From positions 1 to 50,562 of the forward strand of contig PFVO01000042.1 of the NCBI GenBank assembly GCA_002790655.1: a DNA stretch of 50,562 nt. Direction: 5' to 3'. Source of the DNA: Candidatus Moranbacteria bacterium CG_4_9_14_3_um_filter_44_28 (lineage in GTDB: Bacteria; Patescibacteriota; Minisyncoccia; Moranbacterales; UBA11712). This document shows positions 3,041 through 50,282 of the stretch, piece by piece. The notes under the pieces are model-generated. The model was not told where the DNA came from. It saw only the letters and a list, made by a program, of their open reading frames with translations, and did no database searches. The stretch's first letter is position 1. Each line of letters begins with the position of its first letter. A program made the translations under genes and the position numbers.

Positions 3041-4984
3041 TTATATCGTGCTTATTGGATCAACGTCAACCGTCCAGCCTTTTCTCAAGCCGCCTATTAT
3101 CGGATATAGCGGCAGTTTTTCAAGCTTTTTACCGCACGGAATTTTTATCAAAATGTTTTTATAGAAATAACCTCTTTTTTTCGAGGCGGGCGGTTCATAC
3201 GGCTCGGAAACTTCTATTTCATTATTGCCAGCCGCCGCAAGCAAGTCAAATACCTCTTTTGTTTCTTTTTCAGTCTTCTTCTTTGAATTGTCCCGATAAA
3301 ATAATTTCACGATCCCCGAGAAAGGAGGATAAAAAAGTTTTTTTCGCAACTTGATTTCATTTTTATAAAAATCCCGATAGCTTTTCGAATTCAGATAGTC
3401 AAGAACTTCCTCTTTCGGTGAAAAGGTTTGTACAAGGAATCGGCCGGTCTCTTTCACTAAATTTTTGGCTTGTCTGAAATTGGAAAGCGCCTGCTCCATT
3501 GAATTGAAATCGGCGAGATGAAGATGCTCCTGCGCCGAAACAACACCGACCAGATCAAAATCAAAAAATCCGCCTAGCTTCAAAGCTATTTGAGTGCCAA
3601 TAATTATATCAATTTCCCCGTTTTTTAATTTTTCCCTGAATTCCTCGTATTTTTTGACGGATTTTACATTATCAATGTCAAGGCGGATTACTCTGGCCGA
3701 AGGAAAAAGCCTTTTGATTTTCCGCTCAACGAGCTGGGTCCCGATTCCAAGATGGGAAAACTGAAAACCGCCGCAATTCGGACAAAAACTGAAAAGGTCC
3801 GACCGAAACGGACAATGAAGGCAACGATAGCTGTGAGAATCTTCGAAATAGACAACGGGCCGGTCGCATTGGGGACATTTCAAAATGCTTTGGCAGTTTT
3901 GACAAACGGAAAACGTTGAATAACCGCGGCGTTTGGCAAGCAGCAATATCTTTTTTTTCCCGTCCAGCGCCCGGGAAATGCTTTCGTAAAGTTTTTTTGA
4001 AACAGGGAAGTCCGGATTGTTTCTTTCCCGATACAAGTCTGCGATTTCTGTCTTTTTTTCTTCTCCGGCGCTTTTTTCCATATTCAGTATCCGCCATTTT
4101 TCTTTTTCAGCTTTCCAAAAAGTTTCGATCGACGGGCTGAAGCTTTCCAAAACTATTTTTGCGTCCCATAAACCAGCCAGGATTTCAGCCGCCCTCACCG
4201 CGCTATAGCGGGGATTCATATTCCATTGTTTGTGGGAAATATCCTGTTCCTCTTCGAGAATCACCAGTCCCAGTTTTGAAAAAGAAAGAAGCACTCCCAG
4301 TTTAGTCGCTACAACAATTTTTATTTTCCCTTCCCTGATTTTTTTCCACAAGTAAAAAAATTGTCCTTTGGAAATTCTCCCGTGAACAAGCGCGATCTCT
4401 TCATCCGGAAAATACTCCTGGAATTTTCTTCGCATTTCATAGGAATAGTATATTTCCGGAACAAGAATAAGGCATTGTTTTCCCGTTTTCGCAACCCTGG
4501 AAACTAGCGACAAATTTAGATTTAATCTTTTTCCGGCAGAGCCGATAACTAAAAATTTTTTGTTTTTACTATTTAATACAATTTTAGCCTCTTTTATATA
4601 AGAAAACTTATTTTTACTAAAAATCTTCCTGATTTTTTCTTTTTTCTTTTTTATATTTAATATTTTTTCCGGCGTCATCAACTTCAAAAAAATCCCAAGC
4701 GGCGATAGATAATGATTTGATAATTTCTTCGCCAATTCAATCTGCCACTCGGAAAGCATTTTTTCTTCGACAACTGAATTAATTTTTTTCAATTTTATTC
4801 CGCCCGTTCGGGGAAAATCTTTTTTCGAGGAGACGACAATGCCCTGAATAATTCTCCGATGGAAGGGAATATTTGCCAAAGTTCCGATTGGAAGGGTTTT
4901 GTCGCATAAATACGAAAAAACCTGCGTTTTCAGAATCGGCAGGCGGACGAGGGGAGCGACTTGAATGATAAAATTCTTTTTCAT
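3041..4984 (-). CDS. priA: Primosomal protein N' (PriA helicase), with divergent motif I/II
   Basis: 647 aa. PriA-type N-terminus, helicase core (KQCLILVPEI, IVVATKLG, IIIGTQ) and the characteristic Cys-rich zinc region CQNCQ..CPQCD..CLHCP..CPNCGG. Walker A reads GSAGKR and motif II reads EEEQ. Confidence 0.85.
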   Translation of the reverse strand: MKKNFIIQVAPLVRLPILKTQVFSYLCDKTLPIGTLANIPFHRRIIQGIVVSSKKDFPRTGGIKLKKINSVVEEKMLSEWQIELAKKLSNHYLSPLGIFLKLMTPEKILNIKKKKEKIRKIFSKNKFSYIKEAKIVLNSKNKKFLVIGSAGKRLNLNLSLVSRVAKTGKQCLILVPEIYYSYEMRRKFQEYFPDEEIALVHGRISKGQFFYLWKKIREGKIKIVVATKLGVLLSFSKLGLVILEEEQDISHKQWNMNPRYSAVRAAEILAGLWDAKIVLESFSPSIETFWKAEKEKWRILNMEKSAGEEKKTEIADLYRERNNPDFPVSKKLYESISRALDGKKKILLLAKRRGYSTFSVCQNCQSILKCPQCDRPVVYFEDSHSYRCLHCPFRSDLFSFCPNCGGFQFSHLGIGTQLVERKIKRLFPSARVIRLDIDNVKSVKKYEEFREKLKNGEIDIIIGTQIALKLGGFFDFDLVGVVSAQEHLHLADFNSMEQALSNFRQAKNLVKETGRFLVQTFSPKEEVLDYLNSKSYRDFYKNEIKLRKKLFYPPFSGIVKLFYRDNSKKKTEKETKEVFDLLAAAGNNEIEVSEPYEPPASKKRGYFYKNILIKIPCGKKLEKLPLYPIIGGLRKGWTVDVDPISTI

Positions 4985-5517
4985 TGTGAATACTTTTCAA
5001 CGGAAAACTTATAGATTTCTATGCTTTTTTCTGTTTCTGGACTTATTCCGCCTTTTTGGCAGGCAATTGCGAGCTGCTGTTCGACTGTGTCAATTCCTTC
5101 AAGATTGGGGAGCAACAATCCGCACCGGCCATCGGGACATTTCACAATAACACCGTATTTTTTCGGGTCAAGTTCACTCATATCAGAAATCTTTTCAGAT
5201 TCACTCAACAAACTAATTTCGACCGACAAGTCAGCTAATTCATCAACCGAAATTGGAACAAACCGGTGATCCCTGGAACAGGCGGAGACCGCATTCATAA
5301 TAATTTCTTCCGCCAAATTTTTATGGGCTGGCAAATATGTCCCGATACATCCCCGCAGTTCTTTGTTTTTATGCAAACTCACGAAAACTCCGTGATTTTT
5401 TTCATAAAATTCCGGCGGCAAATTTTCAGAAATATCAATAATTTTTCCGGTTTTTATGTATTCCTCAATCGTGTATTTGGCTAGCTGAACATGGAAGCTC
5501 ATGAAAAAGATGTTCAA
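4981..5517 (-). CDS. AMMECR1-domain protein (AmmeMemoRadiSam system protein A-like)
   Basis: 178 aa. GVFVSLHKN.ELRGCIGT and PGVIV...GLLLP-type AMMECR1 signature (GVIVKCPDGRCGLLLPNL). 4-nt overlap with the priA start. Confidence 0.85.
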   Translation of the reverse strand: MNIFFMSFHVQLAKYTIEEYIKTGKIIDISENLPPEFYEKNHGVFVSLHKNKELRGCIGTYLPAHKNLAEEIIMNAVSACSRDHRFVPISVDELADLSVEISLLSESEKISDMSELDPKKYGVIVKCPDGRCGLLLPNLEGIDTVEQQLAIACQKGGISPETEKSIEIYKFSVEKYSQ

Positions 5518-9785: not shown

Positions 9786-11271
9786 CCTCCTCTTCCAGCT
9801 CCTCTCGGGGAGCTTTTTTTCTTTTTACGAGTTGTCTCACAATTTCAAGTTCCAGCGAGCCGAATTCTTTGAGAACGAAAAGAAAAAAGATATATATTGC
9901 AAACAGTATCGCGGACCAGAGAATGAAAGCATAATGTCCTTTTGGAAAAAAAGTTGAAATAAAATACATTACAAAAGAAGCCAGAATAATCTTTAGAAAA
10001 CTTGAAAATCTGAACAAGTATCCAAAATATCTGTAAGAATACGCGAGCACCAAGACCATCGCCACAAAAGAAGTTATTGAAGTGGCAACCGCTGCTCCAA
10101 CAAGTCCGTATTTTTTGATGAGGAAATAACTCAAGATGATATTCACCGCAAGACCCGCAAAAGAAATGATCATCGGCGCTTTCACTTTTCCCGCGCCATT
10201 TAAAGCAAAGGCCATTACATAAAAAATTGTGAGGAAAGTCACTCCCGACATCAAAATCGACATCGGAAGAGCGGCATCAAGAAATTTTTTTCCGTAGAAA
10301 ACTTGCAAAATCGGCGCAGAATAGACGGACATCAGAATCGCAATCGGGAGCAGAAACATCACCATCAGCCGTAATGACTGGCTGATGATTTTTTTTGTGT
10401 CAGAATGATTTTTGCTCGAAGTTGATTTGGAAACTGCCGGCAAAATAATAATCGTGAGCGCGTAGAACAAAAAATAGGGGATACGGCCGACGGTAATCGC
10501 GCCGTTATAAATTCCCGTCAAATAATCGTCGCGCAAAATTCCTTTCACAAGATAAAGATCAATCGTGATCAGAAATTCATAGGCGACAAGAAAAAGCGTC
10601 ATTGGCCAGGCGTAGCGCAAAAGCTTTCGCCAGTCAAAAAATCCTTCGGGTCTTATTTTTTTAAACTTGTCCAAGAGATTCGCTTCAAAGAATATCGAAA
10701 GGGGAGCGAGAATATAGCCAATAATTACTCCCTCGAGTGCGTAACCTTTTGACTTTAAGAGCCAGGCCAGGCCGAGAATAAAAACCAGTCGAGCAACAGA
10801 GCGGCTGGTTTTGAGCCAAGCCTGAATCTTGAATTCGTGAAGTCCTGTGTAGTAGTAGAAATAAAAAGAGGCAAGAGCGAAAGCGGGAATGACGAGCGAT
10901 GATAGTCTGAAAAGATTTGTGAGTGACGAATCGCGAAGAATGAGTGAGATAACAGGGGACAAAAGAAAAAACATCACTGTCACTCCGCCAATCAAAATAA
11001 ATTGGATTTTCGCGGTTTGTCTTTTAATAATCGGAATGAGGCCCAGCCGCGTGTCATAAATTTCCCCGAGATATTTCGCCATCGCCGTTGGCACGCCCTG
11101 CCCGATGAGAACCACGACCATCGTCGTGAGCGTCACCACCAGCCCATATCGTCCATATTCCGCCGGACTCAAAATCCGCCCCATGCCGGAATGGATAACA
11201 TAAGCCGAGAGATTATAAATAATCTCGCTTATAGTCACCCAGAAGAAAGATTTTACGAGAAACTTAGACAT
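9778..11271 (-). CDS. Polysaccharide/oligosaccharide flippase (Wzx / MOP superfamily)
   Basis: 497 aa with roughly 12-14 predicted TM helices. N-terminus is typical of the Polysacc_synt family (FFWVTISEIIYNLSAYVIHSGMGRILSPAEYGRYGLV). Confidence 0.75.
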   Translation of the reverse strand: MSKFLVKSFFWVTISEIIYNLSAYVIHSGMGRILSPAEYGRYGLVVTLTTMVVVLIGQGVPTAMAKYLGEIYDTRLGLIPIIKRQTAKIQFILIGGVTVMFFLLSPVISLILRDSSLTNLFRLSSLVIPAFALASFYFYYYTGLHEFKIQAWLKTSRSVARLVFILGLAWLLKSKGYALEGVIIGYILAPLSIFFEANLLDKFKKIRPEGFFDWRKLLRYAWPMTLFLVAYEFLITIDLYLVKGILRDDYLTGIYNGAITVGRIPYFLFYALTIIILPAVSKSTSSKNHSDTKKIISQSLRLMVMFLLPIAILMSVYSAPILQVFYGKKFLDAALPMSILMSGVTFLTIFYVMAFALNGAGKVKAPMIISFAGLAVNIILSYFLIKKYGLVGAAVATSITSFVAMVLVLAYSYRYFGYLFRFSSFLKIILASFVMYFISTFFPKGHYAFILWSAILFAIYIFFLFVLKEFGSLELEIVRQLVKRKKAPREELEEEVI

Positions 11272-11854
11272 GAATCCGAGATTTTATTTCATTAAATATT
11301 TCTTCTTTGTTTTTCTCCCCGTCAATCGTAACCATATCCCAATCCTTTATTTTTACAGAAAATATCTTTTCTTTCTTAATTAAATATTCCAACCCCTGAT
11401 CCGGCTTTCGCTCGCGCTGCATTATTTTTTCTGGAGAAATTTTTAAATAAAAAGCGAAATCTGGTTTGGGAATGAATTTCTCTGCAAACAATCTTTTATC
11501 CTTCCCTGATAAATAATTTATATTTACCGCACTGTCATAAAAATAACGATCGGATATAATATAGTCGACTTTTAATTTCTTTGTCATCCACCTGAACCTA
11601 AAAATATCAATCAACAGCGCTAATTTCCGTAGTTGTATTTGCAGCCAATTAGCTTTCGTCACGCTTTTTTCACTTGGAGGGATCCGACCCCTCCGATTTT
11701 TTAGGGGTCGGATCCCTAAATTCCCAATCGAAAACTCCACCGCGTGGAAATAATAAAAAGATTTTTCCTCTGATTTTAGGTAATTTTTGAGTAATTCTAT
11801 TTGAGTTGATTTTCCCGAACCATCGAGGCCGGAGATTGATATTAATTTTGACAA
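11264..11854 (-). CDS. Thymidylate-kinase-like P-loop kinase
   Basis: ISISGLDGSGKSTQ P-loop, SDRYFYDS (DRY motif) and PDFAFYL lid region. Overlaps the flippase start by 8 nt. Contains a palindromic element at 11678-11717. Confidence 0.65.
   Translation of the reverse strand: MSKLISISGLDGSGKSTQIELLKNYLKSEEKSFYYFHAVEFSIGNLGIRPLKNRRGRIPPSEKSVTKANWLQIQLRKLALLIDIFRFRWMTKKLKVDYIISDRYFYDSAVNINYLSGKDKRLFAEKFIPKPDFAFYLKISPEKIMQRERKPDQGLEYLIKKEKIFSVKIKDWDMVTIDGEKNKEEIFNEIKSRIHV
11678..11717. repeat. Perfect 15-bp-arm palindrome (AGGGATCCGACCCCT-10 nt-AGGGGTCGGATCCCT) inside the kinase CDS
   Basis: Read directly from the sequence. The arms are exact reverse complements and form a GC-rich island in AT-rich coding sequence. 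It is translated in-frame as ..LGIRPLKNRRGRIPP.. Confidence 0.85.
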
Positions 11855-13774: not shown

Positions 13775-14899
13775 TTACATATTTTTATAAACTGCTTCGT
13801 ATTCTTCTACAATTTTCATTATATCAAACTTTTCCCTCGCAAATTTCATTCCTTTTTCGCCCAAAGCTCCGCGAGCTTCGGGATTGTCGTACAAATATAG
13901 AATTTTTTCCTTAAGTGCTTCACGGTCGCCGGGATTGATCAAAATGCTATTATTGTCGTTCAAAAAATATCGTAACCTCTCAATATTACTTGCGATCATC
14001 GGCTTTCCGCAAGCCATTGCTTCGATAACCGCAAGGGGAATATCGAATTTTCCCGTCATCGTCCGGACTGGGAAAATGGAAATATCGCACAAATTGAAAA
14101 CATCTTCCATGACATAGCTCCCGTCGTCAATAAAAGCTACTCTGTCCAATATTCCAGCTTCTTCGAATTTCTTTTTTACTTCTTCTTTTTTACTAGCGTC
14201 TTTCCGGTTTTTTACCCGAACAGCCAGATGCAATTTGAAATTTTTGTTTTCTTTCGCGAGATCGGAAAAAACGGAAACAATATCGTCCATGTCCCCGAGA
14301 CGCACATATTCTCCCGTGTAGTTTATCACAAAATCATCTTCGGTTGTTTCAAATTTTTTCATCAGCTCCAGTTTTTTAGGTGCGGGGGAGAATAAATTAA
14401 TATCAATGCCGGGATAAATTCGCTTTACATTTTTAAATCCTAATTTTTCCAGCTTTTCTTTGGCGTAGTCGGAATAGGTAATAATAAAATCAGCGTGAAT
14501 AATCTTTTTTAATTTCTCCGCATCATATAAATCATCTCGCAGAGTCGCAAGGGTTTGGATTGTTTTTATCTTCTTGTTTCGCAAGCATAATTCCAGCGCA
14601 AAAACATTTAACTTCGTGGGAGTAAAGAAAGAATGGATAATATCGTAATCTTTTCCACCCTTCAGTAAAAACTCTTTAATTAAAAAAACATACGCCCGGA
14701 TTTTTTGCATCCAATTCCACTTTGATGATGAATAAATAAGGTGCTGGACAACATTTCCAGTGAGATCGGCAATTCTTCCGTGCGTTAATAGATGAACTTC
14801 AAAATCCCGCGCATACTTCGCCAGCGTATACGCAAAATCCTTTGAACCTTCATCCCAAGGAGGGCAAATTGGACGAGTCAAAAGCAAAACTCGCTTCAT
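13775..14899 (-). CDS. Glycosyltransferase family 4 (GT-B, group 1)
   Basis: C-terminal signature CDISIFPVRT..GKFDIPLAVIEAMACGKPMIASN (E-x7-E region). 374 aa. Confidence 0.8.
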   Translation of the reverse strand: MKRVLLLTRPICPPWDEGSKDFAYTLAKYARDFEVHLLTHGRIADLTGNVVQHLIYSSSKWNWMQKIRAYVFLIKEFLLKGGKDYDIIHSFFTPTKLNVFALELCLRNKKIKTIQTLATLRDDLYDAEKLKKIIHADFIITYSDYAKEKLEKLGFKNVKRIYPGIDINLFSPAPKKLELMKKFETTEDDFVINYTGEYVRLGDMDDIVSVFSDLAKENKNFKLHLAVRVKNRKDASKKEEVKKKFEEAGILDRVAFIDDGSYVMEDVFNLCDISIFPVRTMTGKFDIPLAVIEAMACGKPMIASNIERLRYFLNDNNSILINPGDREALKEKILYLYDNPEARGALGEKGMKFAREKFDIMKIVEEYEAVYKNM

Positions 14900-15264
14900 C
14901 GAATGTTTTTATAAATCTTATACTCCACATCTTTATAATCAACTACTATTGTAATTTTATTTTCTTTCGATTTCTCGTCCTCAATCACCGGCGAGATTTT
15001 TTGTTTGGCGCCGGCTTCGATTTTTATTTTGTCATCAATCACTTTGTCGTCACCGACAAAAATTTCATAATCGTACTCCGCCTTCCCCCCTTGATGATTC
15101 TCGATCGTGAAATCAAGCGAGTCGTCGCGGGGATTGTCAAAATATACCACACTCCACGATTTTTTATAGTCGTAATTGTGGTTTTTGGCTTCAATGACAA
15201 ACAAAACAGAAAAACTGATGAGGAGCAAAATTATTGTTGTGATGATGATTATTTTGCTGGACAT
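14896..15264 (-). CDS. Hypothetical membrane-anchored protein
   Basis: Start trimmed to MSSKIIIITTIILLLISF (single N-terminal TM); the longer track ORF overlaps the upstream gene. ATGA overlap with the downstream GT4. Confidence 0.5.
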   Translation of the reverse strand: MSSKIIIITTIILLLISFSVLFVIEAKNHNYDYKKSWSVVYFDNPRDDSLDFTIENHQGGKAEYDYEIFVGDDKVIDDKIKIEAGAKQKISPVIEDEKSKENKITIVVDYKDVEYKIYKNIR

Positions 15265-34735: not shown

Positions 34736-36058
34736 TTAATGGTAAACAATCATCTGGTCAACCACTACACCGCTTCCGTATAAAGCGCCCACGTAGGCTT
34801 TCGTCGAGCTCAAGAAAATATTAGCTCCCCAATAAGGATCGTGGACGACGTATTCCCCGTTTTTATCTTTTGAGTGAATGATCACGTAATGGCCCGCTCC
34901 CCTCTTCACAGCTTTCACAAAAACAATAACCGGATTTTTATTTTTCAACTCCTTGTCAACTGTATCCCAGTCAATATTTCCATGTCCCGTGGAAGACGCA
35001 AGCTCCACTCCTTTCCACGATTTCGGCCAAACGATAAGATCATGATAAAAAACCGGCTGCTGGGCAAGAACGCCGGGATTGATATCAACCCCGTGATAGC
35101 GAAAAACCATCGAGACCGCCGTCACCGCGCAACCATAGCTTTTCATAAGCGTGTTTGAAAAGCCAATATGCTGATCGCCCCAGCGCGGATCACGCTGGGA
35201 AAAATACCAGCTTGTTGAAGCCAGCCCCGATTTGGGTTTTTTAAGTGTTGCTTCCACTGCCGCGAGATCCGCGCTTTTTTCCTGACTCAATTCGGAAATA
35301 TCCCCAAGAAGTTCCTGTTTCTGCTCTTCCACCCGGGCCAGCATCTCCTGATACTTCTGCTCTTCCCCTCGCGTCTCGGTCAAAAGAGTTTCTTTGGATC
35401 CTTGCTCGTTGTCAAGGTAGTGCTTTTTCTCACCAATCTGACCCTGTTTTTCCTTGAGCTCATTGTTTTTGTCCTCGAGTTTTCTTTTGCTATCAGCCAA
35501 TTCATCCCGGGCGCTTATCACTGACGTCAAAACCTCGTCAACTTTAGCTCCCGTTTGAGCTACATAATCCGGCTGGCTCAAATAGCTGGAAAGGCTAACG
35601 TCGCGAAGCATTAATTCCATCAAAGAATCCCGATTATTTTCGTAATATGCCTGAAGCACGCTTCCCAGCAGTTCTTTTTTGTAATCAATTTCCTTTTCTT
35701 TTTCTCCGATTTGCTTGACCAAACTATCTATATCATTTGTTGTCGCGTCAATCTGCACTTGAAGCTTGGCGATATCATTTTCCAGGCTGGCAATTTGCCC
35801 CTCCATAAGTTCAATTTGATTTTGAAGCGTCTGGGCTTTGCTTTGCTTCATTTCAATCATCTGGCGATAGCTTTCCGCTTTTTTCTGAAGGTCCTCAATT
35901 TGCTCCTGTTTATTCTGAATTTGCTGCTGATTGCTGTTATCGGTCGTACTTTGAGCAATAACGCAGCTAAATAAAAAAGAAAAAATCAAAAAAGTTATCG
36001 CAAAGCGATTCCATATATTTGATATTTGATATTTGATATTTGATATTAACTCGAACAT
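34736..36058 (-). CDS. Secreted coiled-coil protein with C-terminal C39-like cysteine peptidase domain (putative cell-wall hydrolase)
   Basis: Signal/anchor FAITFLIFSFLFSCVIAQS. About 250 aa of heptad-rich Q/E/K coiled coil. C-terminus WYFSQRDPRW...SYGCAVTAVSMVF...GAGHYVIIHS...VHDP matches the Peptidase_C39_2 layout. Confidence 0.7.
   Translation of the reverse strand: MFELISNIKYQISNIWNRFAITFLIFSFLFSCVIAQSTTDNSNQQQIQNKQEQIEDLQKKAESYRQMIEMKQSKAQTLQNQIELMEGQIASLENDIAKLQVQIDATTNDIDSLVKQIGEKEKEIDYKKELLGSVLQAYYENNRDSLMELMLRDVSLSSYLSQPDYVAQTGAKVDEVLTSVISARDELADSKRKLEDKNNELKEKQGQIGEKKHYLDNEQGSKETLLTETRGEEQKYQEMLARVEEQKQELLGDISELSQEKSADLAAVEATLKKPKSGLASTSWYFSQRDPRWGDQHIGFSNTLMKSYGCAVTAVSMVFRYHGVDINPGVLAQQPVFYHDLIVWPKSWKGVELASSTGHGNIDWDTVDKELKNKNPVIVFVKAVKRGAGHYVIIHSKDKNGEYVVHDPYWGANIFLSSTKAYVGALYGSGVVVDQMIVYH
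36015..36047. repeat. Tandem heptanucleotide repeat (ATATTTG x4.7) within codons 4-15 of the hydrolase gene
   Basis: Read directly: ATATTTG at 36015, 36022, 36029 and 36036, plus a partial unit to 36047. Encodes ..ISNIKYQISNI.. on the minus strand. Confidence 0.9.
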
Positions 36059-38795: not shown

Positions 38796-39494
38796 TTATT
38801 CTAACAGAAATGACTCCAGAATATAATAAACTCTCTTGCCCTTCTCAAATTTGCTTTCGTATAACTCGATCGAGTTCACCGAAACGGAAAATTTGAAATC
38901 TCTTTCCACTTCCGGCTCCGGTTTACCCCGCACCACAGATTTATCTTGCCGTCCGGCAGATAAGTGATCATAGCATTCTGTGGTGCGGGGTAAAATTTTT
39001 CTCCATTTTTCCTTTCTGATTCTTCCCAGAGTAATATGAGGTCTAAACTCTCTCTTTTCCCCTACGTGAAATCCAAGCGCTTTATCCAGCCGATATTTTA
39101 GATCAGACAATTCGTCGCTTTTCTCGCCCGTTGCCCAAATCATTTTCTTTATTTCGTCAGTCGGCCCCGGCTCTATTTTTACAAATTCCAGTTCGAAAGA
39201 CTGAAAATCCTGAACGGCGCTCTGAATAACCTCACAGACACCCAAAATATTTTCATCTGAAACGTAACCCAGAAAAATGAGCGTCAGGTGAAAATTTTCC
39301 CATCGAACCCATTTCACCCCGCACCACAGCCGGTTTTGATCTTTTATTCGCCTGGATAATCGATTTGAGCCATGCAAACGAAGCTGTGGTGCGGGGCAAG
39401 CGGGTAAATCCCCATATTCTTTTTCGACAAAACGAAACAGGCGCTTTTTGACGTCTTCCGGCAAACCAATTGCCACAAACAAGCGCTTTTGCAT
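38796..39494 (-). CDS. thpR: 2H-phosphoesterase (RNA 2',3'-cyclic phosphodiesterase ThpR / 2'-5' RNA ligase LigT) carrying two in-frame palindromic insertions
   Basis: Start at the ATG (MQKRLFVAIGLP); the track start is a TTG. Two HxTx motifs (HLTLIFLG, HITLGR) and a LigT-like C-terminus (FSVSVNSIELYES). About 49 aa longer than expected, accounted for by the elements at 38926-38990 and 39317-39396. Confidence 0.8.
   Translation of the reverse strand: MQKRLFVAIGLPEDVKKRLFRFVEKEYGDLPACPAPQLRLHGSNRLSRRIKDQNRLWCGVKWVRWENFHLTLIFLGYVSDENILGVCEVIQSAVQDFQSFELEFVKIEPGPTDEIKKMIWATGEKSDELSDLKYRLDKALGFHVGEKREFRPHITLGRIRKEKWRKILPRTTECYDHLSAGRQDKSVVRGKPEPEVERDFKFSVSVNSIELYESKFEKGKRVYYILESFLLE
38926..38990. 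repeat. Intragenic hairpin element copy A: CCCCGCACCACAG-39 nt-CTGTGGTGCGGGG
   Basis: Exact 13-bp inverted arms at 38926-38938 and 38978-38990; they extend to 17 bp with the TTTA/TAAA flanks. Translated as PRTTECYDHLSAGRQDKSVVRG. Confidence 0.9.
39317..39396. repeat. Intragenic hairpin element copy B: CCCCGCACCACAG-54 nt-CTGTGGTGCGGGG
   Basis: Exact 13-bp arms at 39317-39329 and 39384-39396. Translated in a different frame from copies A and C (..CPAPQLRLHGSNRLSRRIKDQNRLWCGV..). Confidence 0.9.
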
Positions 39495-39539
39495 AAGAAA
39501 ATTATAGCATTTTACCAACCAATTTTCAACCCGAATCTT

Positions 39540-41750
39540 CTACTCCACTTCCACGTCATAAATCGTCGCCACGTCTGATTTTTCTTCGGAACGGATTTCG
39601 GATCCATCGGCGGCGCGAATGTCGAAAATCACTTCGTTTTCTCCCGGCCGGATATCTTTTACTTTCGCTTCAATTGAAATTTTCGTATCAAGCTGGGTAA
39701 TATATTTTTTGTAAACTTCCTGCCCGTTAACAAGAACCTTAAGTCCGAGAGGCTTATAGAGTTTAATTTTAAAATTGAATTTCCCATCCTGCGGAATTTG
39801 CGCCATATTCACGATTTTCACACCCGCCCCGTTTTCCGCCCAGCGCTGAAGGCCGTTTTTTGACTTGCTCTTGCCGACCCAGTGTTTATTTGAATAATCC
39901 ATCGCCAAAAACATATGTTCCGGTATATCACTCTGGTCAATCTTGCAGGCATAAAGGTACTCATCCTTATATTCATCCGCACATTTTATGACATTTTGGA
40001 TATAAGCCCTGGCCGAATACAGCATGTTTAAATCACCTTTCGCTGGATTTCCCTTGAGTCCCTCTTTGTCTAATATGATATACCGGATATTATAATAATT
40101 TAGAATTTCGCTTGATATCTTATAATATGAATCCTTCATTATGTCGCGGTCATTGCCATTGCTCCCGTCCGGCAAATCATAAAGAATAGTCCGGATAATT
40201 GGAGTCCCTCGCTGAAAAGTATAATGATCCTTTATTACCCGGGCAAAATCGTAGCCATTTATTGTATTTTTGCGATGAATGCTCTTCCATACCAAATCAC
40301 GCGAAGCAAAATCATAATCCGTGCTCCCGGGGACTTCAAGCACGCTGTAATTTTCCTTGTCTTGACCTAATTTTTCATAAAAAGAAGAATGGAGAAGCAG
40401 ATTAGTCTTGAGAGGAATTGCGAGAAATTCAAGGATGATGATTATGCTAATTATAAAAAATACAATTTTTTGTCTGCGACCAAGCCCAAAAAGATCGATG
40501 CGTTTGCTTTTTGCAATATCACCAGTTGGCGATTCTTCTTTTATTCCTTCCTTTTTATTTCTTATTTTTGATATCACATACGTGCTTCCCCACGCCGCGA
40601 GAACGGAAAAGGCCAGCATAGAATATACAAAAAGCCGTCCGACAGTTCGGATATTATTAAAAAACGGAAGATAATTATAGGCCAGGAGATACGGCATTTT
40701 TATCGGCGGTTCGATTTGCCCCTTGAAATGAAGGTATGGTCCGAGAGACAAAATATAGAAGCCAAGGGCCACTGCCAGCCAAAACCACTTCTGGGAAATC
40801 CGGTTTTTGAAGAAAGCGAAAGTTGAAAGCAACAGCACAAAAAATCCGACGTAAACTGAAAATGTGCTGTCCGTTCTCCTTTCGAAAGTTTGCCGGACCC
40901 CCGAAAAAGCGTTCGGCCAAAAAGAATGAAAAGAAGGAGGGATGAAAATGCTCAAAGTGTCATTGGAGTATTTCACTGCCGCCTTAAATCCCGGATCGAG
41001 ATAATTGTCTCCAGAAGAGGCTATATTAAACAACGAACGGAACATAAAAAAGAAAAGGACTGATAAGACAAGAAGGCTGATAACCGCATAGAGCCAAAAC
41101 TTGCCTTTCAAAAAAATCTTCGGCTGGAAAATAAGTTTATAGACGAGAAAGAATAAAACGAATATTACGGTAAACGCCAGAAGCTGATGTTCGGAAAAAC
41201 CGATCAAAAGCAAAAACAATCCCGCCAGCGCGAAATTTTTGAACTTCAAGTCATCAAAAAATTTGAAAAGATAAAGCGCGAAAAACGGCAGCCACTCCTG
41301 ATGCATTGTGCCCACGTTGGTACTCAACGAATTGTGAAGATGAAACGGCGAAAAAGCGAAAATAATTCCGGCAAGGAGCGACGCTGATTTACTTTTTGTA
41401 AAGTAATAAGCCAGAAGATAGGCACCGAACCCGGAAAGGATAAACGACGCGAAAAAAAGCAGATTATAGCCGATTATTTTTCCAAAAATCAGCTCGAAAT
41501 AAGCATAGAGCGTGATGATGTTAAATTCCGACCGCCCCGCGAGTTCAATTGTTCCCTTGAAAATGCCAAGATCCTCGAGGACATTGACTCTTTCCCCCAC
41601 CGTTCCAATTACCTGCATTGTATCCGACCCGAAACTGGGAACGGAAGAAAAAAAATGCCAAAAAGCAGGCCAGGTGAGAATAAGCGTTAAGACGGCATAA
41701 AAAATAATTATTTGTAAAGATTCGTGTTTTTTCTTTTCAGATTTTTCCAT
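39540..41750 (-). CDS. Large polytopic membrane protein with C-terminal soluble domain (putative GT-C glycosyltransferase)
   Basis: 736 aa. About 12 TM helices in the first roughly 430 aa, then a roughly 300-aa soluble beta-rich C-terminus. Lies in the glycosylation operon. Confidence 0.5.
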   Translation of the reverse strand: MEKSEKKKHESLQIIIFYAVLTLILTWPAFWHFFSSVPSFGSDTMQVIGTVGERVNVLEDLGIFKGTIELAGRSEFNIITLYAYFELIFGKIIGYNLLFFASFILSGFGAYLLAYYFTKSKSASLLAGIIFAFSPFHLHNSLSTNVGTMHQEWLPFFALYLFKFFDDLKFKNFALAGLFLLLIGFSEHQLLAFTVIFVLFFLVYKLIFQPKIFLKGKFWLYAVISLLVLSVLFFFMFRSLFNIASSGDNYLDPGFKAAVKYSNDTLSIFIPPSFHSFWPNAFSGVRQTFERRTDSTFSVYVGFFVLLLSTFAFFKNRISQKWFWLAVALGFYILSLGPYLHFKGQIEPPIKMPYLLAYNYLPFFNNIRTVGRLFVYSMLAFSVLAAWGSTYVISKIRNKKEGIKEESPTGDIAKSKRIDLFGLGRRQKIVFFIISIIIILEFLAIPLKTNLLLHSSFYEKLGQDKENYSVLEVPGSTDYDFASRDLVWKSIHRKNTINGYDFARVIKDHYTFQRGTPIIRTILYDLPDGSNGNDRDIMKDSYYKISSEILNYYNIRYIILDKEGLKGNPAKGDLNMLYSARAYIQNVIKCADEYKDEYLYACKIDQSDIPEHMFLAMDYSNKHWVGKSKSKNGLQRWAENGAGVKIVNMAQIPQDGKFNFKIKLYKPLGLKVLVNGQEVYKKYITQLDTKISIEAKVKDIRPGENEVIFDIRAADGSEIRSEEKSDVATIYDVEVE

Positions 41751-41824
41751 GGTCCAAATAAAATATTAAATAGAAAATAGAAAATATTTTTGAATTTTTA
41801 CTATTTTCTTTTTGCTTTTTTATA

Positions 41825-42553
41825 TTATTTATATTTCCCTCTCCAATCATTCACTCTTATCCTCAACAAATCCCAGGTCATGTTGAGCGGATCACGGACC
41901 AGCCGGATATGGCTTTCCGGTGGATTTTGGAGAGAAATGGGAAGTTCCTTCATTTTATAACCGAATTTATTGGCCAAGAAAATCACCTCTGCGTCAAAAG
42001 CAAATCTTTTCACGGTGAGGCGCGAAAAAATTTTCATCGCCGCTTCCCGGCGAAAAACTTTGAAGCCGCACTGGGTATCCTTTATGTTCCATATGTTTAT
42101 GATTATTATCCGCAACAGCCGGAATATTTTTTCCATGATCCGCCGATGCCAGACCACGGGCCTCAAGATTTTCAGCCCCGGCACAAAACGCGAAGCGATT
42201 ACAAGATCAAAACCATTCTTCACCTCCTCCAAAAATCCATCGAGTTCTTCTATGGGAATTCCTAGATCGGCATCCAGAAACATTACCGTCTCAAAACGAC
42301 TCTTCAAAATGCCCCGCTGGACCGCTTTTCCTTTTCCCTCATTGGGCTGATTGTCAATTATCCTTATTGGAAACTCTTTCTGGAATCTCCTCAACTCTTC
42401 AAGGGTTTTGTCAGCGCTCCCGTCGTTGACCGCAATCAGCTCAAAATCATGAAAACGATTATTTAAGTAATCGAAAATGTTTTTAAGATTGAAGTAAATG
42501 GTTTTTTCCTCATTAAAACAAGGAACAACCACCGAAATCCGGCCGCTTTTCAT
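41825..42553 (-). CDS. Glycosyltransferase family 2 (dolichyl/polyprenyl-phosphate glycosyltransferase-like)
   Basis: ISVVVPCFNEEKTI, AVNDGSADKT, FLDADLG (DxD) and TQCGFKVFRR. Confidence 0.88.
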   Translation of the reverse strand: MKSGRISVVVPCFNEEKTIYFNLKNIFDYLNNRFHDFELIAVNDGSADKTLEELRRFQKEFPIRIIDNQPNEGKGKAVQRGILKSRFETVMFLDADLGIPIEELDGFLEEVKNGFDLVIASRFVPGLKILRPVVWHRRIMEKIFRLLRIIIINIWNIKDTQCGFKVFRREAAMKIFSRLTVKRFAFDAEVIFLANKFGYKMKELPISLQNPPESHIRLVRDPLNMTWDLLRIRVNDWRGKYK

Positions 42554-42597
42554 AGATATTTTTAAATTTCCTCAATTCTATTTTACTCTAATTCAAA

Positions 42598-44331
42598 TTA
42601 TTTTTCCAATGAGATCCCGAAGATATCTTTCCAAAATATTCTTTTCGACTTCTCTTCTTTTTCTCCTGCAAAAAAAGCACCCGCGTCTTCTTTTGGATTT
42701 ATTTTATACACAGTGAGCGCTCCAAACTTATTTTGCGATAAAATATCAAATTTTTCTTTGTTTTTCAGGCTGAAATTTTTGCTGCGGGTCAGACCAAAGG
42801 CATAAAAACATCCGTCCTGCCCGCCGTCATAATTTTTAATGGAAACCGCATTCAGATTTGCAAGTGCCAGCACGTATTTCGCGGGCGACTTGTATTCCGA
42901 GCTGGCGCTTATAAAAATAAGCGGCTTATCACAATCGCGTTTAATATATTCGGATGCTTTCTCGAGATGCCAAAGCACGATGCCATCCTGCGCTTTGAGA
43001 ATAATTGTTCGCTTAGGATAAACCACCCGCTTCTGGGAGGACCTTATTTCTTTAAACCAGAAATAGGTTCCAGTGAGATTCCCAAAAAACATTATCGAGA
43101 GCGCCAAAACAACGCAGATTTTCCAAAAAATACGTCGTTTCTCCCAGAAAAATACGGCAAGATAGCCGACAAAAATAAACGGCAGCGCGAGAAGCGGCAA
43201 AAAAAATCGCGGCCGGATTTGATAAGCAATCGGGATATAAGCCAAAAAATATACCGGAAACCAAAGAAGCGAAACAAGAATAAAATTTTTCCTGCCCGAA
43301 TTTTCCTCGCGGCGATAAAACTTGAAACCGAAAAACAGCGCCGGCAAAATCGCGCCCAGCCAGGAAACTATCGCCCCTTTAATGCCAGTCTTCCTGCTTA
43401 TCCAGCTCGTCAAAATCAAAAACCAATTTTGCCCGAAGTAGCGGATATCCCGCTTTACATTTTGCCAAAAACTGTGCGCTGACGGTTTTTCCTTAAGAGC
43501 CGATATGAACTCGCGGGTATTTTCTCCCTTGGAGATAACTTCATTCAAAAATACAGGGAGATAGAATAAAAGGACAACAAAAACAAATATCACCGCTTTT
43601 TTCCAGTCCAAGAATTTGCCGGCGTCTTTTCTGTTTTTCCAGAGAAAAATTGCCGTTATCACCGGCAGAGTCAGAAAGGAAAGAAAATGAAGCTGAGTCG
43701 AGACCGCGAAAGAAGCGCCTGCCAGAATCACCCAGCGCAAGCGGTATTTTATTTTCTTGCCCCGCACCACAGATTCCTCCGATGAAGCGGCAGTATTTTT
43801 ATTTAATAGACCTTGGCGACTTTCTGTGGTGCGGGGTGAATCGAATACGTTGAGAAGCGAATAAAAATAAAGAAGATTGAAAAAAGAGAGTGAATTCGGA
43901 TTCCAGGCAAAGCGGGAGTACTGAATTCCCAAAAAGCAAACGGAATAAAGTCCCGCGAGCACCAGCGACCAGTCGCGGGAAAAATATTTTTTGGCGAATA
44001 TGTAAAAAAGCGGAATGGAAAGAATTCCGAAAAGCAAATCCGGAAAGGCCATCACCGCCGGATGCGTGCTCTGGAAAATAGCCGCCGCCAGATATTGGAA
44101 ATAATAAAATACCGGCCCGACATTCAGCTCCGTTCCGCCTGCCTTTGGTCCGAGAAGCGGAAGCCAGCCTGGCCCCTTTTCAAAAGCGTCGCGGATAAGC
44201 ATTGCGTCCCGGGCCTGGTCCATTTTGAAAAACAGCCAGTCGGAAAAATGCCAGACGCGCAAAAAAACGGCCAGGCCCAGAACAAAGAAAAAAATTATTT
44301 CTTTGTAATTTTTTTTGAGGAAATCTTTCAT
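42598..44331 (-). CDS. ArnT/PMT-like GT-C glycosyltransferase (GT39/GT83-like) with an in-frame palindromic insertion
   Basis: 577 aa. N-terminal FFKMDQARD (DxD-like loop 1 motif), multiple TM helices and a C-terminal soluble domain. Element copy C lies at 43760-43836. Confidence 0.65.
   Translation of the reverse strand: MKDFLKKNYKEIIFFFVLGLAVFLRVWHFSDWLFFKMDQARDAMLIRDAFEKGPGWLPLLGPKAGGTELNVGPVFYYFQYLAAAIFQSTHPAVMAFPDLLFGILSIPLFYIFAKKYFSRDWSLVLAGLYSVCFLGIQYSRFAWNPNSLSFFNLLYFYSLLNVFDSPRTTESRQGLLNKNTAASSEESVVRGKKIKYRLRWVILAGASFAVSTQLHFLSFLTLPVITAIFLWKNRKDAGKFLDWKKAVIFVFVVLLFYLPVFLNEVISKGENTREFISALKEKPSAHSFWQNVKRDIRYFGQNWFLILTSWISRKTGIKGAIVSWLGAILPALFFGFKFYRREENSGRKNFILVSLLWFPVYFLAYIPIAYQIRPRFFLPLLALPFIFVGYLAVFFWEKRRIFWKICVVLALSIMFFGNLTGTYFWFKEIRSSQKRVVYPKRTIILKAQDGIVLWHLEKASEYIKRDCDKPLIFISASSEYKSPAKYVLALANLNAVSIKNYDGGQDGCFYAFGLTRSKNFSLKNKEKFDILSQNKFGALTVYKINPKEDAGAFFAGEKEEKSKRIFWKDIFGISLEK
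43760..43836. repeat. Intragenic hairpin element copy C: CCCCGCACCACAG-51 nt-CTGTGGTGCGGGG
   Basis: Exact 13-bp arms at 43760-43772 and 43824-43836. Translated as PRTTESRQGLLNKNTAASSEESVVRG. Confidence 0.9.
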
Positions 44332-49910: not shown

Positions 49911-50282
49911 TTATTTCTTTTCTTTTAAAGTTATGATGCCCTTAGCAATAACATTTGATATTTCGACTAATTCTTGTAATAACCAGCTCAATTCTTTTTG
50001 ATCTCCCTTCCCAGTATCTCGCAAAAGAGCTAGCCATACTTTCGATTCATTCGCTGATTTCAGAGAATGAGTGAAAAAATTTATAAAATCCTTTTTTGAA
50101 CTTGCTGAATTTGCTTCGATATAATTAGCCAGAATACTTGTCCCGCTTCTTAACAATTGCTTTCCCATAACATCACATACGGAATTCTTGGGAAGTTTAT
50201 CTATAAATTTAATCAGTCTCAAAACAAAATTGTATAATCTTTTTTTAAATTCATTTTTAAATTTTGCCTTGTCATTTTCCAT
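49911..50282 (-). CDS. Four-helix-bundle protein (23S rRNA intervening-sequence protein / Avd-like family)
   Basis: 123 aa. GKQLLRSGTSILANYIEANSASSKKDFINFF.HSLKSANESKVWLALL matches the family signature (QL.RS.tSI.aN..EA....SkkDFi....i...E..Et.yWL.LL). Confidence 0.8.
   Translation of the reverse strand: MENDKAKFKNEFKKRLYNFVLRLIKFIDKLPKNSVCDVMGKQLLRSGTSILANYIEANSASSKKDFINFFTHSLKSANESKVWLALLRDTGKGDQKELSWLLQELVEISNVIAKGIITLKEKK

Follow-up and report, generated by a model that had tools for sequence, protein, structure and literature searches.

In-frame hairpin inserts in thpR and a glycosyltransferase gene of a Moranbacteria genome: a dispersed repeat family with conserved 13-nt arms

Results

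The window in this study, i.e. the whole stretch of DNA that was analysed, covers positions 1 to 50,562 (50,562 nt) of contig PFVO01000042.1 of Candidatus Moranbacteria bacterium CG_4_9_14_3_um_filter_44_28. Its GC content is 42%, and ca. 94% of it is coding. On the minus strand, thpR occupies 38796–39494 and encodes 232 aa, with an ATG at 39494 (MQKRL) and the stop at 38796. Its product was assigned to ThpR/LigT (RNA 2',3'-cyclic phosphodiesterase) by TIGR02258 (105.2 bits vs a cutoff of 65.7) and by Pfam LigT_PEase (PF02834; E = 1.6e-16). The AlphaFold model (mean pLDDT 86) showed a confident 2H fold, and in Foldseek comparisons with 1vdx, 1iuh, 5ldq, and 4qak (E = 5e-12 to 1e-10; TMt 0.74–0.80, the TM score normalised to the target) it matched the LigT/ThpR structures of P. 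horikoshii, T. thermophilus, and E. coli. The initial annotation, which was made from the sequence of the window, had described three LigT-like segments, two intact HxTx motifs, and a gene that appeared functional. The three segments were all found in this one minus-strand ORF, and the motifs are indeed intact, H69-L-T71 and H153-I-T155 being invariant in an alignment of 94 homologues. The dN/dS of the thpR core ranged from 0.06 to 0.18, the latter value being that between the window strain and the strain of orthologue P0002, the two strains with both of the inserts described below. Since these low values indicate purifying selection, and both HxT motifs are retained, thpR is predicted to be a functional gene despite both inserts and not a pseudogene.

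Two pairs of exact 13-nt arms, CCCCGCACCACAG/CTGTGGTGCGGGG, lie within thpR at the positions given in the initial annotation, namely 38926–38938/38978–38990 (e1) and 39317–39329/39384–39396 (e2). The two arm-bounded blocks described there are thus present; the list was incomplete in that the window holds a third exact pair (e3) at 43760–43772/43824–43836, 4.4 kb away. This pair lies in a gene on the minus strand at 42598–44331, which encodes a PMT_2-like (GT-C type) membrane glycosyltransferase of 577 aa (PF13231; E = 1.4e-6). When up to two mismatches were allowed, the window contained six arm matches, every one of them exact, vs a chance expectation of 0.23 on average and two at most; six were reached in none of 100 shuffles (the observed number being ca. 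26-fold above expectation). Measured from end to end, the hairpins are 65 nt (e1, 38926–38990), 80 nt (e2, 39317–39396), and 77 nt (e3, 43760–43836) long, and their perfect inverted repeats range from 13 to 18 bp, the stem of e1 extending to 18 bp. RNA folding predicted a strong outer stem in all three (z = −4.3 to −7.9), and e1 folded at −41 kcal/mol (z = −7.9) with a second, inner hairpin. The interiors of e1, e2, and e3 did not align with one another. The hairpins had no match when the whole window was searched with Rfam at gathering thresholds, and permissive E-values in the region returned only sub-threshold, miRNA-like hairpin noise. A role as terminator was considered and rejected, the sense strand having no T-run after the hairpins.

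The homologue search with ThpR found 154 sequences, including about 90 orthologues of ca. 181 aa; the orthologues from Moranbacteria and Parcubacteria were nearly all 181 aa long. Protein and DNA alignments with these orthologues delimited e1 as a 23-aa (69-nt) insert, PRTTECYDHLSAGRQDKSVVRGK, at residues 168–190 and e2 as a 28-aa (84-nt) insert, ACPAPQLRLHGSNRLSRRIKDQNRLWCG, at residues 32–59. The proposal that the two blocks are in-frame insertions that lengthen the protein was thus borne out, close orthologues being empty at both positions. Its sizes were slightly too small: the estimates of ca. 22 and 27 aa become 23 and 28 aa, and ThpR is 51 aa, not 49 aa, above the 181-aa norm. The placement of the blocks in loops between structural elements was also right, because residues 32–59 and 168–190 are low-confidence segments (pLDDT 49–65 vs 86 overall) that form loops between the core secondary-structure elements of the AlphaFold model. 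The second insert, e2, was confined to two strains, that of the window and that of P0002, which are 90% identical, and its removal restored LPVKW, as in the orthologues. An e1 with a homologous interior is common to P0002, P0003, and P0004; the site is empty in P0005, P0006, P0008, and most other orthologues. Orthologues with homologous peptides at both sites but without the arms, which would have contradicted the insertion reading, were not encountered; P0007 was the sole orthologue that combined a homologous peptide with a degraded arm, and it is simply a decayed copy of the e1 insertion. Besides, orthologue P0011 (locus L021) carries a 44-nt copy at a third position of thpR; three different ThpR loops have therefore been struck in different lineages. 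In the glycosyltransferase, e3 adds 27 aa (81 nt) when compared with the orthologue at locus L022, in which a 27-aa gap marks the empty site. The orthologue at L032 is filled, its arms and flanks being identical to those of e3 and its interior being diverged, with a 3-nt indel.

When placed in a common orientation, most copies share the layout 5'-TTYR-CCCCGCACCACAG-AAYG…variable…CTGTGGTGCGGGG-NNNN, in which the hairpin begins after TTYR and ends before NNNN. Across the family, the hairpins range from 44 to 83 nt, with CCCCGCACCA/TGGTGCGGGG as the arm core and a poorly conserved interior that often contains a second hairpin. The termini pair together into a single stem, without separate subterminal hairpins. 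The rules for target and tail that follow rest on few cases, the number of distinct copies being ca. 10. TTYR stands directly 5' of nine of the nine CPR copies. Four of the five coding copies lengthen their gene by the hairpin and a further 4 nt: e1 spans 38922–38990 on the minus strand, with the tail TAAA at 38922–38925; e2 spans 39317–39400 on the plus strand, with the tail CAAG (plus strand); e3 spans 43756–43836 on the minus strand, with the tail CAAG; and the P0011 copy follows the same rule. The exception is a copy at locus L017 (hairpin plus 5 nt). Excising the hairpin plus 4 nt made the filled genes colinear with their empty orthologues (LPVKW, ILPEP, FDSK vs FDGK, and GFRAGEK vs GFRPGEK). 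Direct TTTA…TTTA flanks were seen at all four Portnoybacteria-type copies and would be just as compatible with a 4-bp target duplication, whereas none of the five Moranbacteria copies had a direct flanking repeat (TTTA/TAAA, TTCA/CAAG twice, TTCG/CGAA, and TTCG/TAAA). The flanks thus do not establish a classical target duplication, and a clean model of target-site duplication, of either TA or 4 bp, was rejected because the Moranbacteria copies do not fit it.

Public collections were scanned for both arms at a spacing of 30–60 nt only. Exact arm pairs were found at three genome loci (two in the Portnoybacteria MAG PEUE01 and one in a contig with 62% GC binned as Akkermansiaceae) and nine metagenome loci, and these collapsed to four further elements. 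Three of the four are intergenic (83, 74, and 77 nt); the fourth (L012, 77 nt) lies in frame in a radical-SAM gene, and its interior resembles that of the intergenic copy at L007, with compensatory changes in an inner hairpin. Looser arm matching in the retrieved loci revealed two more copies, the one in P0011 and a 79-nt copy of the P0002 strain in the N-terminal region of a C39-peptidase-like gene (L017:4984–5062). The arms of the latter are changed in a compensatory way (…CCAAAT/ATTTGG…), and the orthologue in the window is empty. On the basis of these comparisons, the arm-bearing hairpins are one family, with members in Moranbacteria, in Portnoybacteria, and in one further bacterium at least. 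No match to the arm pair was obtained in viral contigs, a blastn search of plasmids with e1 found nothing, and the ca. 4 kb past the end of the window held no additional copy. The ca. 0.3 Mb of the window and the loci yielded no transposase and no autonomous element bounded by the same arms, nor was an HUH/Y1, RAYT, or TnpA transposase gene seen there. The full-text literature search for the arm sequence returned just unrelated eukaryotic primers, and that for MITE or palindromic insertions in CPR/Patescibacteria returned nothing relevant. The initial annotation did not note that its blocks recur as a dispersed repeat, both in further genes and lineages and between genes, nor that one copy is polymorphic in nature.

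The net lengths of the five coding inserts delimited by an empty orthologue were 69, 84, 81, 84, and 48 nt, each a multiple of three and leaving the host frame free of stops; counting L012, all six independent coding copies had a net length of 3n and were open in the host frame. Between the window and L032, the orthologous copies of e3 differ by a sole indel, of exactly 3 nt. From the 3n lengths, the open host frame, and this lone 3-nt indel, we infer that the inserts are probably translated as extra loops. The arms are stop-free in all six frames. Since each whole element is stop-free in only about three of the six, the frame in which a copy lies is selected rather than intrinsic. The peptides of the inserts include TTECYDHLSAGR and LHGSNR.

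It was also considered that the elements might be intervening sequences, with the hairpins directing cleavage of the mRNA and its subsequent re-ligation, which would give a mature protein without the inserts. The stems are conserved, as such removal would lead one to expect, and the host gene encodes an RNA-end-healing enzyme, which is a merely suggestive coincidence. However, removal from the RNA would lift the constraints on length and frame that are evident in the six coding copies and in the 3-nt indel of e3, and it is therefore very unlikely. In addition, the stem is a perfect helix without bulge-helix-bulge geometry, and the same family occurs in intergenic DNA.

The dN/dS of the thpR inserts was about 0.6–1.4, and that of the e3 interior was ca. 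0.57 with a pS of 0.55 (near saturation). These values show that the peptide sequence of the inserts evolves neutrally and is not under selection. If the inserted peptides were functional parts of ThpR, maintained by selection on the protein, this would account for the persistence of e1 in several diverged lineages and for the partial retention of a short interior motif, HLSAGR. That motif, however, coincides with the inner DNA hairpin, and the near-neutral dN/dS, the low pLDDT of the inserts, and the presence and absence of e1 within one population all speak against a selected peptide. The same arms are, moreover, read in two frames (PRTT…VVRG in e1 and e3; PAPQ…LWCG in e2), and we regard a protein-level function as highly improbable. 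The idea that e1 is younger than its host gene (dS 0.2–0.25 vs 1.3–2.9 for the core) was dropped: the invariant arms accounted for most of the deficit, the numbers for the interior by itself were too small, and the e3 interior was near saturation.

Loss of e1 was observed directly among natural strains. In the 90%-identity cluster of the window ThpR (P0001), we found P0121, which is the window protein minus the 23 residues of e1, with e2 retained. Loci L028–L031, from four other samples, were 99.8–100% identical to the window over 8–12.6 kb and lacked exactly the 69-nt e1 copy. The filled allele of the window reads AAAAATTTTA[CCCC…GGGG]TAAACCGGAG, and the empty allele of L028–L031 reads AAAAATTTTACCGGAG, in which AAAAATTTTA is joined to CCGGAG; the microhomology at the deletion is 3 nt only (ACC). 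The same boundary of loss was seen in the P0003 lineage (L013 vs L032), with TTTTT[CCCC…GGGG]CAGGCCGGAG as the filled and TTTTTCCGGAG as the empty allele. In a distance tree built from insert-free columns, the empty P0005 and P0006 were sisters of the filled window protein and P0002, and the filled P0003, P0004, and P0007 branched further out. The host of e3 showed a patchy distribution of the same kind, the empty L022 being nearer to the window than the filled L032 (26% vs 32% nucleotide divergence of the glycosyltransferase gene). The simplest history of these copies is that they were inserted long ago and were then lost repeatedly without a trace. There were also recent gains, namely e2 (window and P0002 strains only) and the peptidase copy at L017 (P0002 strain only). 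The 90% clusters contained no insert-less variants of the e3, L012, and L017 copies; the shorter members of these clusters were fragments or a split gene, the split having nothing to do with the element.

Long perfect hairpins stimulate slippage deletions. The losses could be due to replication slippage across the hairpin between direct repeats of 2–3 nt, with selection of the in-frame outcomes, in which case the family itself may have ceased to be mobile. The deletion of e1 can indeed be written between ACC...ACC in the window lineage or CC...CC in the P0003 lineage, and the ca. 0.3 Mb searched held no transposase, which is what an immobile family would show. Against slippage, the microhomology is just 2–3 nt, the boundary of hairpin plus 4 nt also delimits the e2, e3, and L021 insertions, which slippage does not predict, and e2 and the L017 copy are new insertions in recent lineages. 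We consider this explanation a real possibility, albeit short of an even chance; it applies to the losses and not to the insertions.

The arms were compared between orthologous copies that had remained in place. Between the window and P0004, the arms of e1 differed at 0 of 26 positions and the interior at 10 of 39, with a core pS of 0.73. Between the window and L032, the arms of e3 differed at 0 of 26 positions and the interior at 22 of 48 plus the indel, with a host pS of 0.69. Across the orthologue comparisons of e1 and e3, host synonymous differences amounted to 62–73% and interior differences to 26–46%. The chance of 0 of 26 differences at the host nucleotide divergence of 27% and 32% is ca. 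3e-4 and ca. 4e-5, respectively. Because the arms have not diverged where synonymous sites are near saturation, some constraint in place must be assumed in most lineages. Arm changes did occur in P0003 (one, compensated: CAA…TTG), in P0007 (7 of 26, the right arm being decayed), and in P0002 (3 of 52 over e1 and e2, a rate about that of the interior). The constraint could reflect recognition by a protein, a structural role of the DNA or RNA, or another process.

One reading of the constraint is that the hairpins are kept for a role in the host at the site where they lie, such as binding a conserved protein, governing the stability or processing of the mRNA, or pausing the ribosome, the insertions having been domesticated. 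The identity of orthologous arms in e1 and e3 is what such a role would require. The often compensatory nature of the arm changes (CAA/TTG in P0003, AAAT/ATTT in L017) and the occurrence of the same 13-nt arms in different CPR orders and in the contig with 62% GC point in the same direction. However, e1 is evidently dispensable, since it is cleanly absent from otherwise identical strains and from most orthologues, and the arms decay in P0007 and P0002. The lack of an Rfam match and of a sense-strand T-run after the hairpins, and the location of copies in unrelated genes and intergenic DNA, also argue against such a role, which we therefore consider unlikely.

Discussion

Taken together, the blocks in thpR quite probably belong to a family of hairpin repeats that resembles the Rickettsia RPEs, REPs, and MITEs, is translated as tolerated loops, and is lost seamlessly. 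Since CPR genomes are tiny and ca. 94% of the window is coding, a mobile repeat has almost only genes to land in. A copy whose net length is 3n and whose target is a surface loop that tolerates it would pass through transcription and translation and give the protein one more disordered loop; as the arms are stop-free in all frames, such a copy would simply be read through. ThpR keeps its HxT active-site motifs and remains under purifying selection as the insert peptides drift. The copies are not inert, since e1 has been taken out seamlessly, with the hairpin plus 4 nt, in otherwise identical natural strains, and comparable clean absences are seen in other lineages. A tolerated mobile repeat leaves one observation unexplained: a selfish resident copy is expected to decay, whereas the arms of e1 and e3 are identical between diverged orthologues.

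We infer that the mobility depends on an enzyme acting in trans. Such an enzyme would recognise the foot of the hairpin and the adjacent tetranucleotides, and would cut and join without duplication. By analogy with known systems, a single-strand mechanism of the HUH/Y1 type, which involves no duplication and excises seamlessly, would fit best. It is doubtful, though conceivable, that a trans-acting system, HUH-like or new, is still active and widespread in CPR and beyond, inserting and excising hairpin cassettes with the arms as its recognition module. If this were true, the loop insertions would be reversible and in frame, the reduced CPR genomes would harbour a new mechanism of mobile elements and not just a likeness of RPEs, and the arms would be conserved through interaction with the enzyme or through a host function of the hairpin.

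Ogata et al. reportedly described the Rickettsia palindromic elements in 2000 and 2002. According to PMC3733652, in-frame palindromic repeats are known as Rickettsia RPEs and intragenic REPs, and RPEs are ca. 100–150 bp long, conserved over their full length within a family, and tagged with CGTC at one end. Like RPEs, the present elements are short palindromes that recur across a small genome, lie in frame in intact, apparently functional genes at positions compatible with the fold, and have empty sites in orthologues. They differ from RPEs in their length of 44–83 nt, in the conservation of the 13-nt arms only, in their CPR host, and in their clean loss within a natural population. Their ends, CCCCGC.../...GCGGGG with TTYR and YRAR flanks, carry neither the CGTC tag nor GTAG.

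The likeness to REPs and REPINs, which are associated with RAYT, an IS200/IS605-type HUH enzyme, lies in the GC-rich hairpins, sometimes intragenic (PMC3733652), in the conserved tetranucleotide at the hairpin foot, in the absence of target duplication from the Moranbacteria copies, and in seamless loss. Unlike in those systems, there is no GTAG tag here, neither a RAYT nor a TnpA was found to be encoded by the window and the loci, and REPs are single imperfect palindromes of 20–40 nt, whereas the present elements consist of two arms around a variable core of 18–57 nt. Bacterial MITEs such as the Correia elements of Neisseria likewise have terminal inverted repeats, measure 50–150 nt, are non-coding, form hairpins once transcribed, and are polymorphic for presence and absence. 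In classical MITEs, however, the interior is conserved, the target-site duplication is clear (TA in the case of Correia), and there is a full-length relative among the IS elements; the present elements vary in their interior, and five of five Moranbacteria copies lack the duplication. Fungal mitochondria contain GC-cluster or double-hairpin elements, which are GC-rich palindromes in an AT-richer genome and lie in frame in protein genes; these belong to a different genetic system and have no sequence relation to the present elements. The present family is set apart by its architecture, in which short invariant arms enclose a free interior and 4 nt follow as a tail, by its CPR host, and by the coexistence of filled and empty alleles in nature.

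Filled and empty alleles coexist in otherwise identical groundwater populations, and removal leaves no scar. These populations offer a natural system in which to study the tolerance of proteins to random loop insertions, the movement of palindromic repeats where the machinery for repair and recombination is minimal, and the reason for which hairpin arms resist mutation. For annotation, unexplained differences in the length of CPR proteins may often correspond to such elements. Two further likenesses were noted, that of CCCCGCACCA to a tRNA acceptor end and that of CCCCGC...GCGGGG(A)TAAAC to type I-E CRISPR repeats; both are short and were taken as coincidence.

Distribution of the hairpin family in and beyond the window

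The GC-rich hairpin family with 13-nt inverted arms has three copies in the roughly 55 kb of genome sequence covered: e1 (38922-38990) and e2 (39317-39400) in thpR and e3 (43756-43836) in a glycosyltransferase gene. All of them lie inside 38922-43836, less than 5 kb apart. Neither the other 45 kb of the window nor a 4-kb upstream extension contained further copies of the family. The grouping of the three copies within 5 kb may reflect local hopping.

In a strain ca. 90% identical to that of the window (locus L017), an additional 79-nt copy was found at 4984-5062, in the N-terminal region of a C39-peptidase-like gene. Its counterpart in the window is an empty site at about 35990-36010 whose sequence makes a short palindrome of its own (ATCGC TTT GCGAT); the L017 element is placed in the loop of this palindrome. 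In the syntenic region of another relative (L022), the C39-peptidase gene is followed by a free-standing LAGLIDADG_1 homing-endonuclease gene (14657-15166), which is missing from the corresponding place in the window.

The thpR gene of another Moranbacteria lineage, encoding the homologue P0011, has a third insertion site (L021:726-769), where a 44-nt family copy with the arms CCCCGCACCACGG/CGTGGGGCGGGG adds 16 aa (PAPRGVMGVGSWGGVN). This copy is an insertion event independent of the e1 and e2 sites. Rare population variants of the window ThpR were represented by P0122, P0123, and P0124, each on one contig; the substitutions among them include H153Y, which hits the second catalytic HxT motif, and R-to-W and P-to-L changes at positions within the e1 arms.

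Outside the CPR bins, an exact 13-nt arm pair, identical to that of the family and spanning 75 nt end to end, was located in an intergenic region of an Akkermansiaceae MAG (L002:3940-4014, JALRFY010000247.1), on a contig of 62% GC. Either the range of the family extends beyond CPR, or this contig was mis-binned or transferred.

Other features of the window

A free-standing gene for a '23S rRNA-intervening sequence protein' (PF05635, E=2e-19) is present at the window end (49911-50282, minus strand).

A thymidylate-kinase-like gene (ORF 11264-11854, minus strand) contains, in-frame at 11678-11717, a GC-rich hairpin with a perfect 15-bp stem (AGGGATCCGACCCCT and AGGGGTCGGATCCCT, 10 nt apart), which encodes a peptide containing LGIRPLKNRRGRIPP. 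The Thymidylate_kin Pfam match of this ORF is broken in two with an offset of ca. 17 residues. This hairpin may be an in-frame insertion from a second hairpin family, unrelated to that with 13-nt arms.
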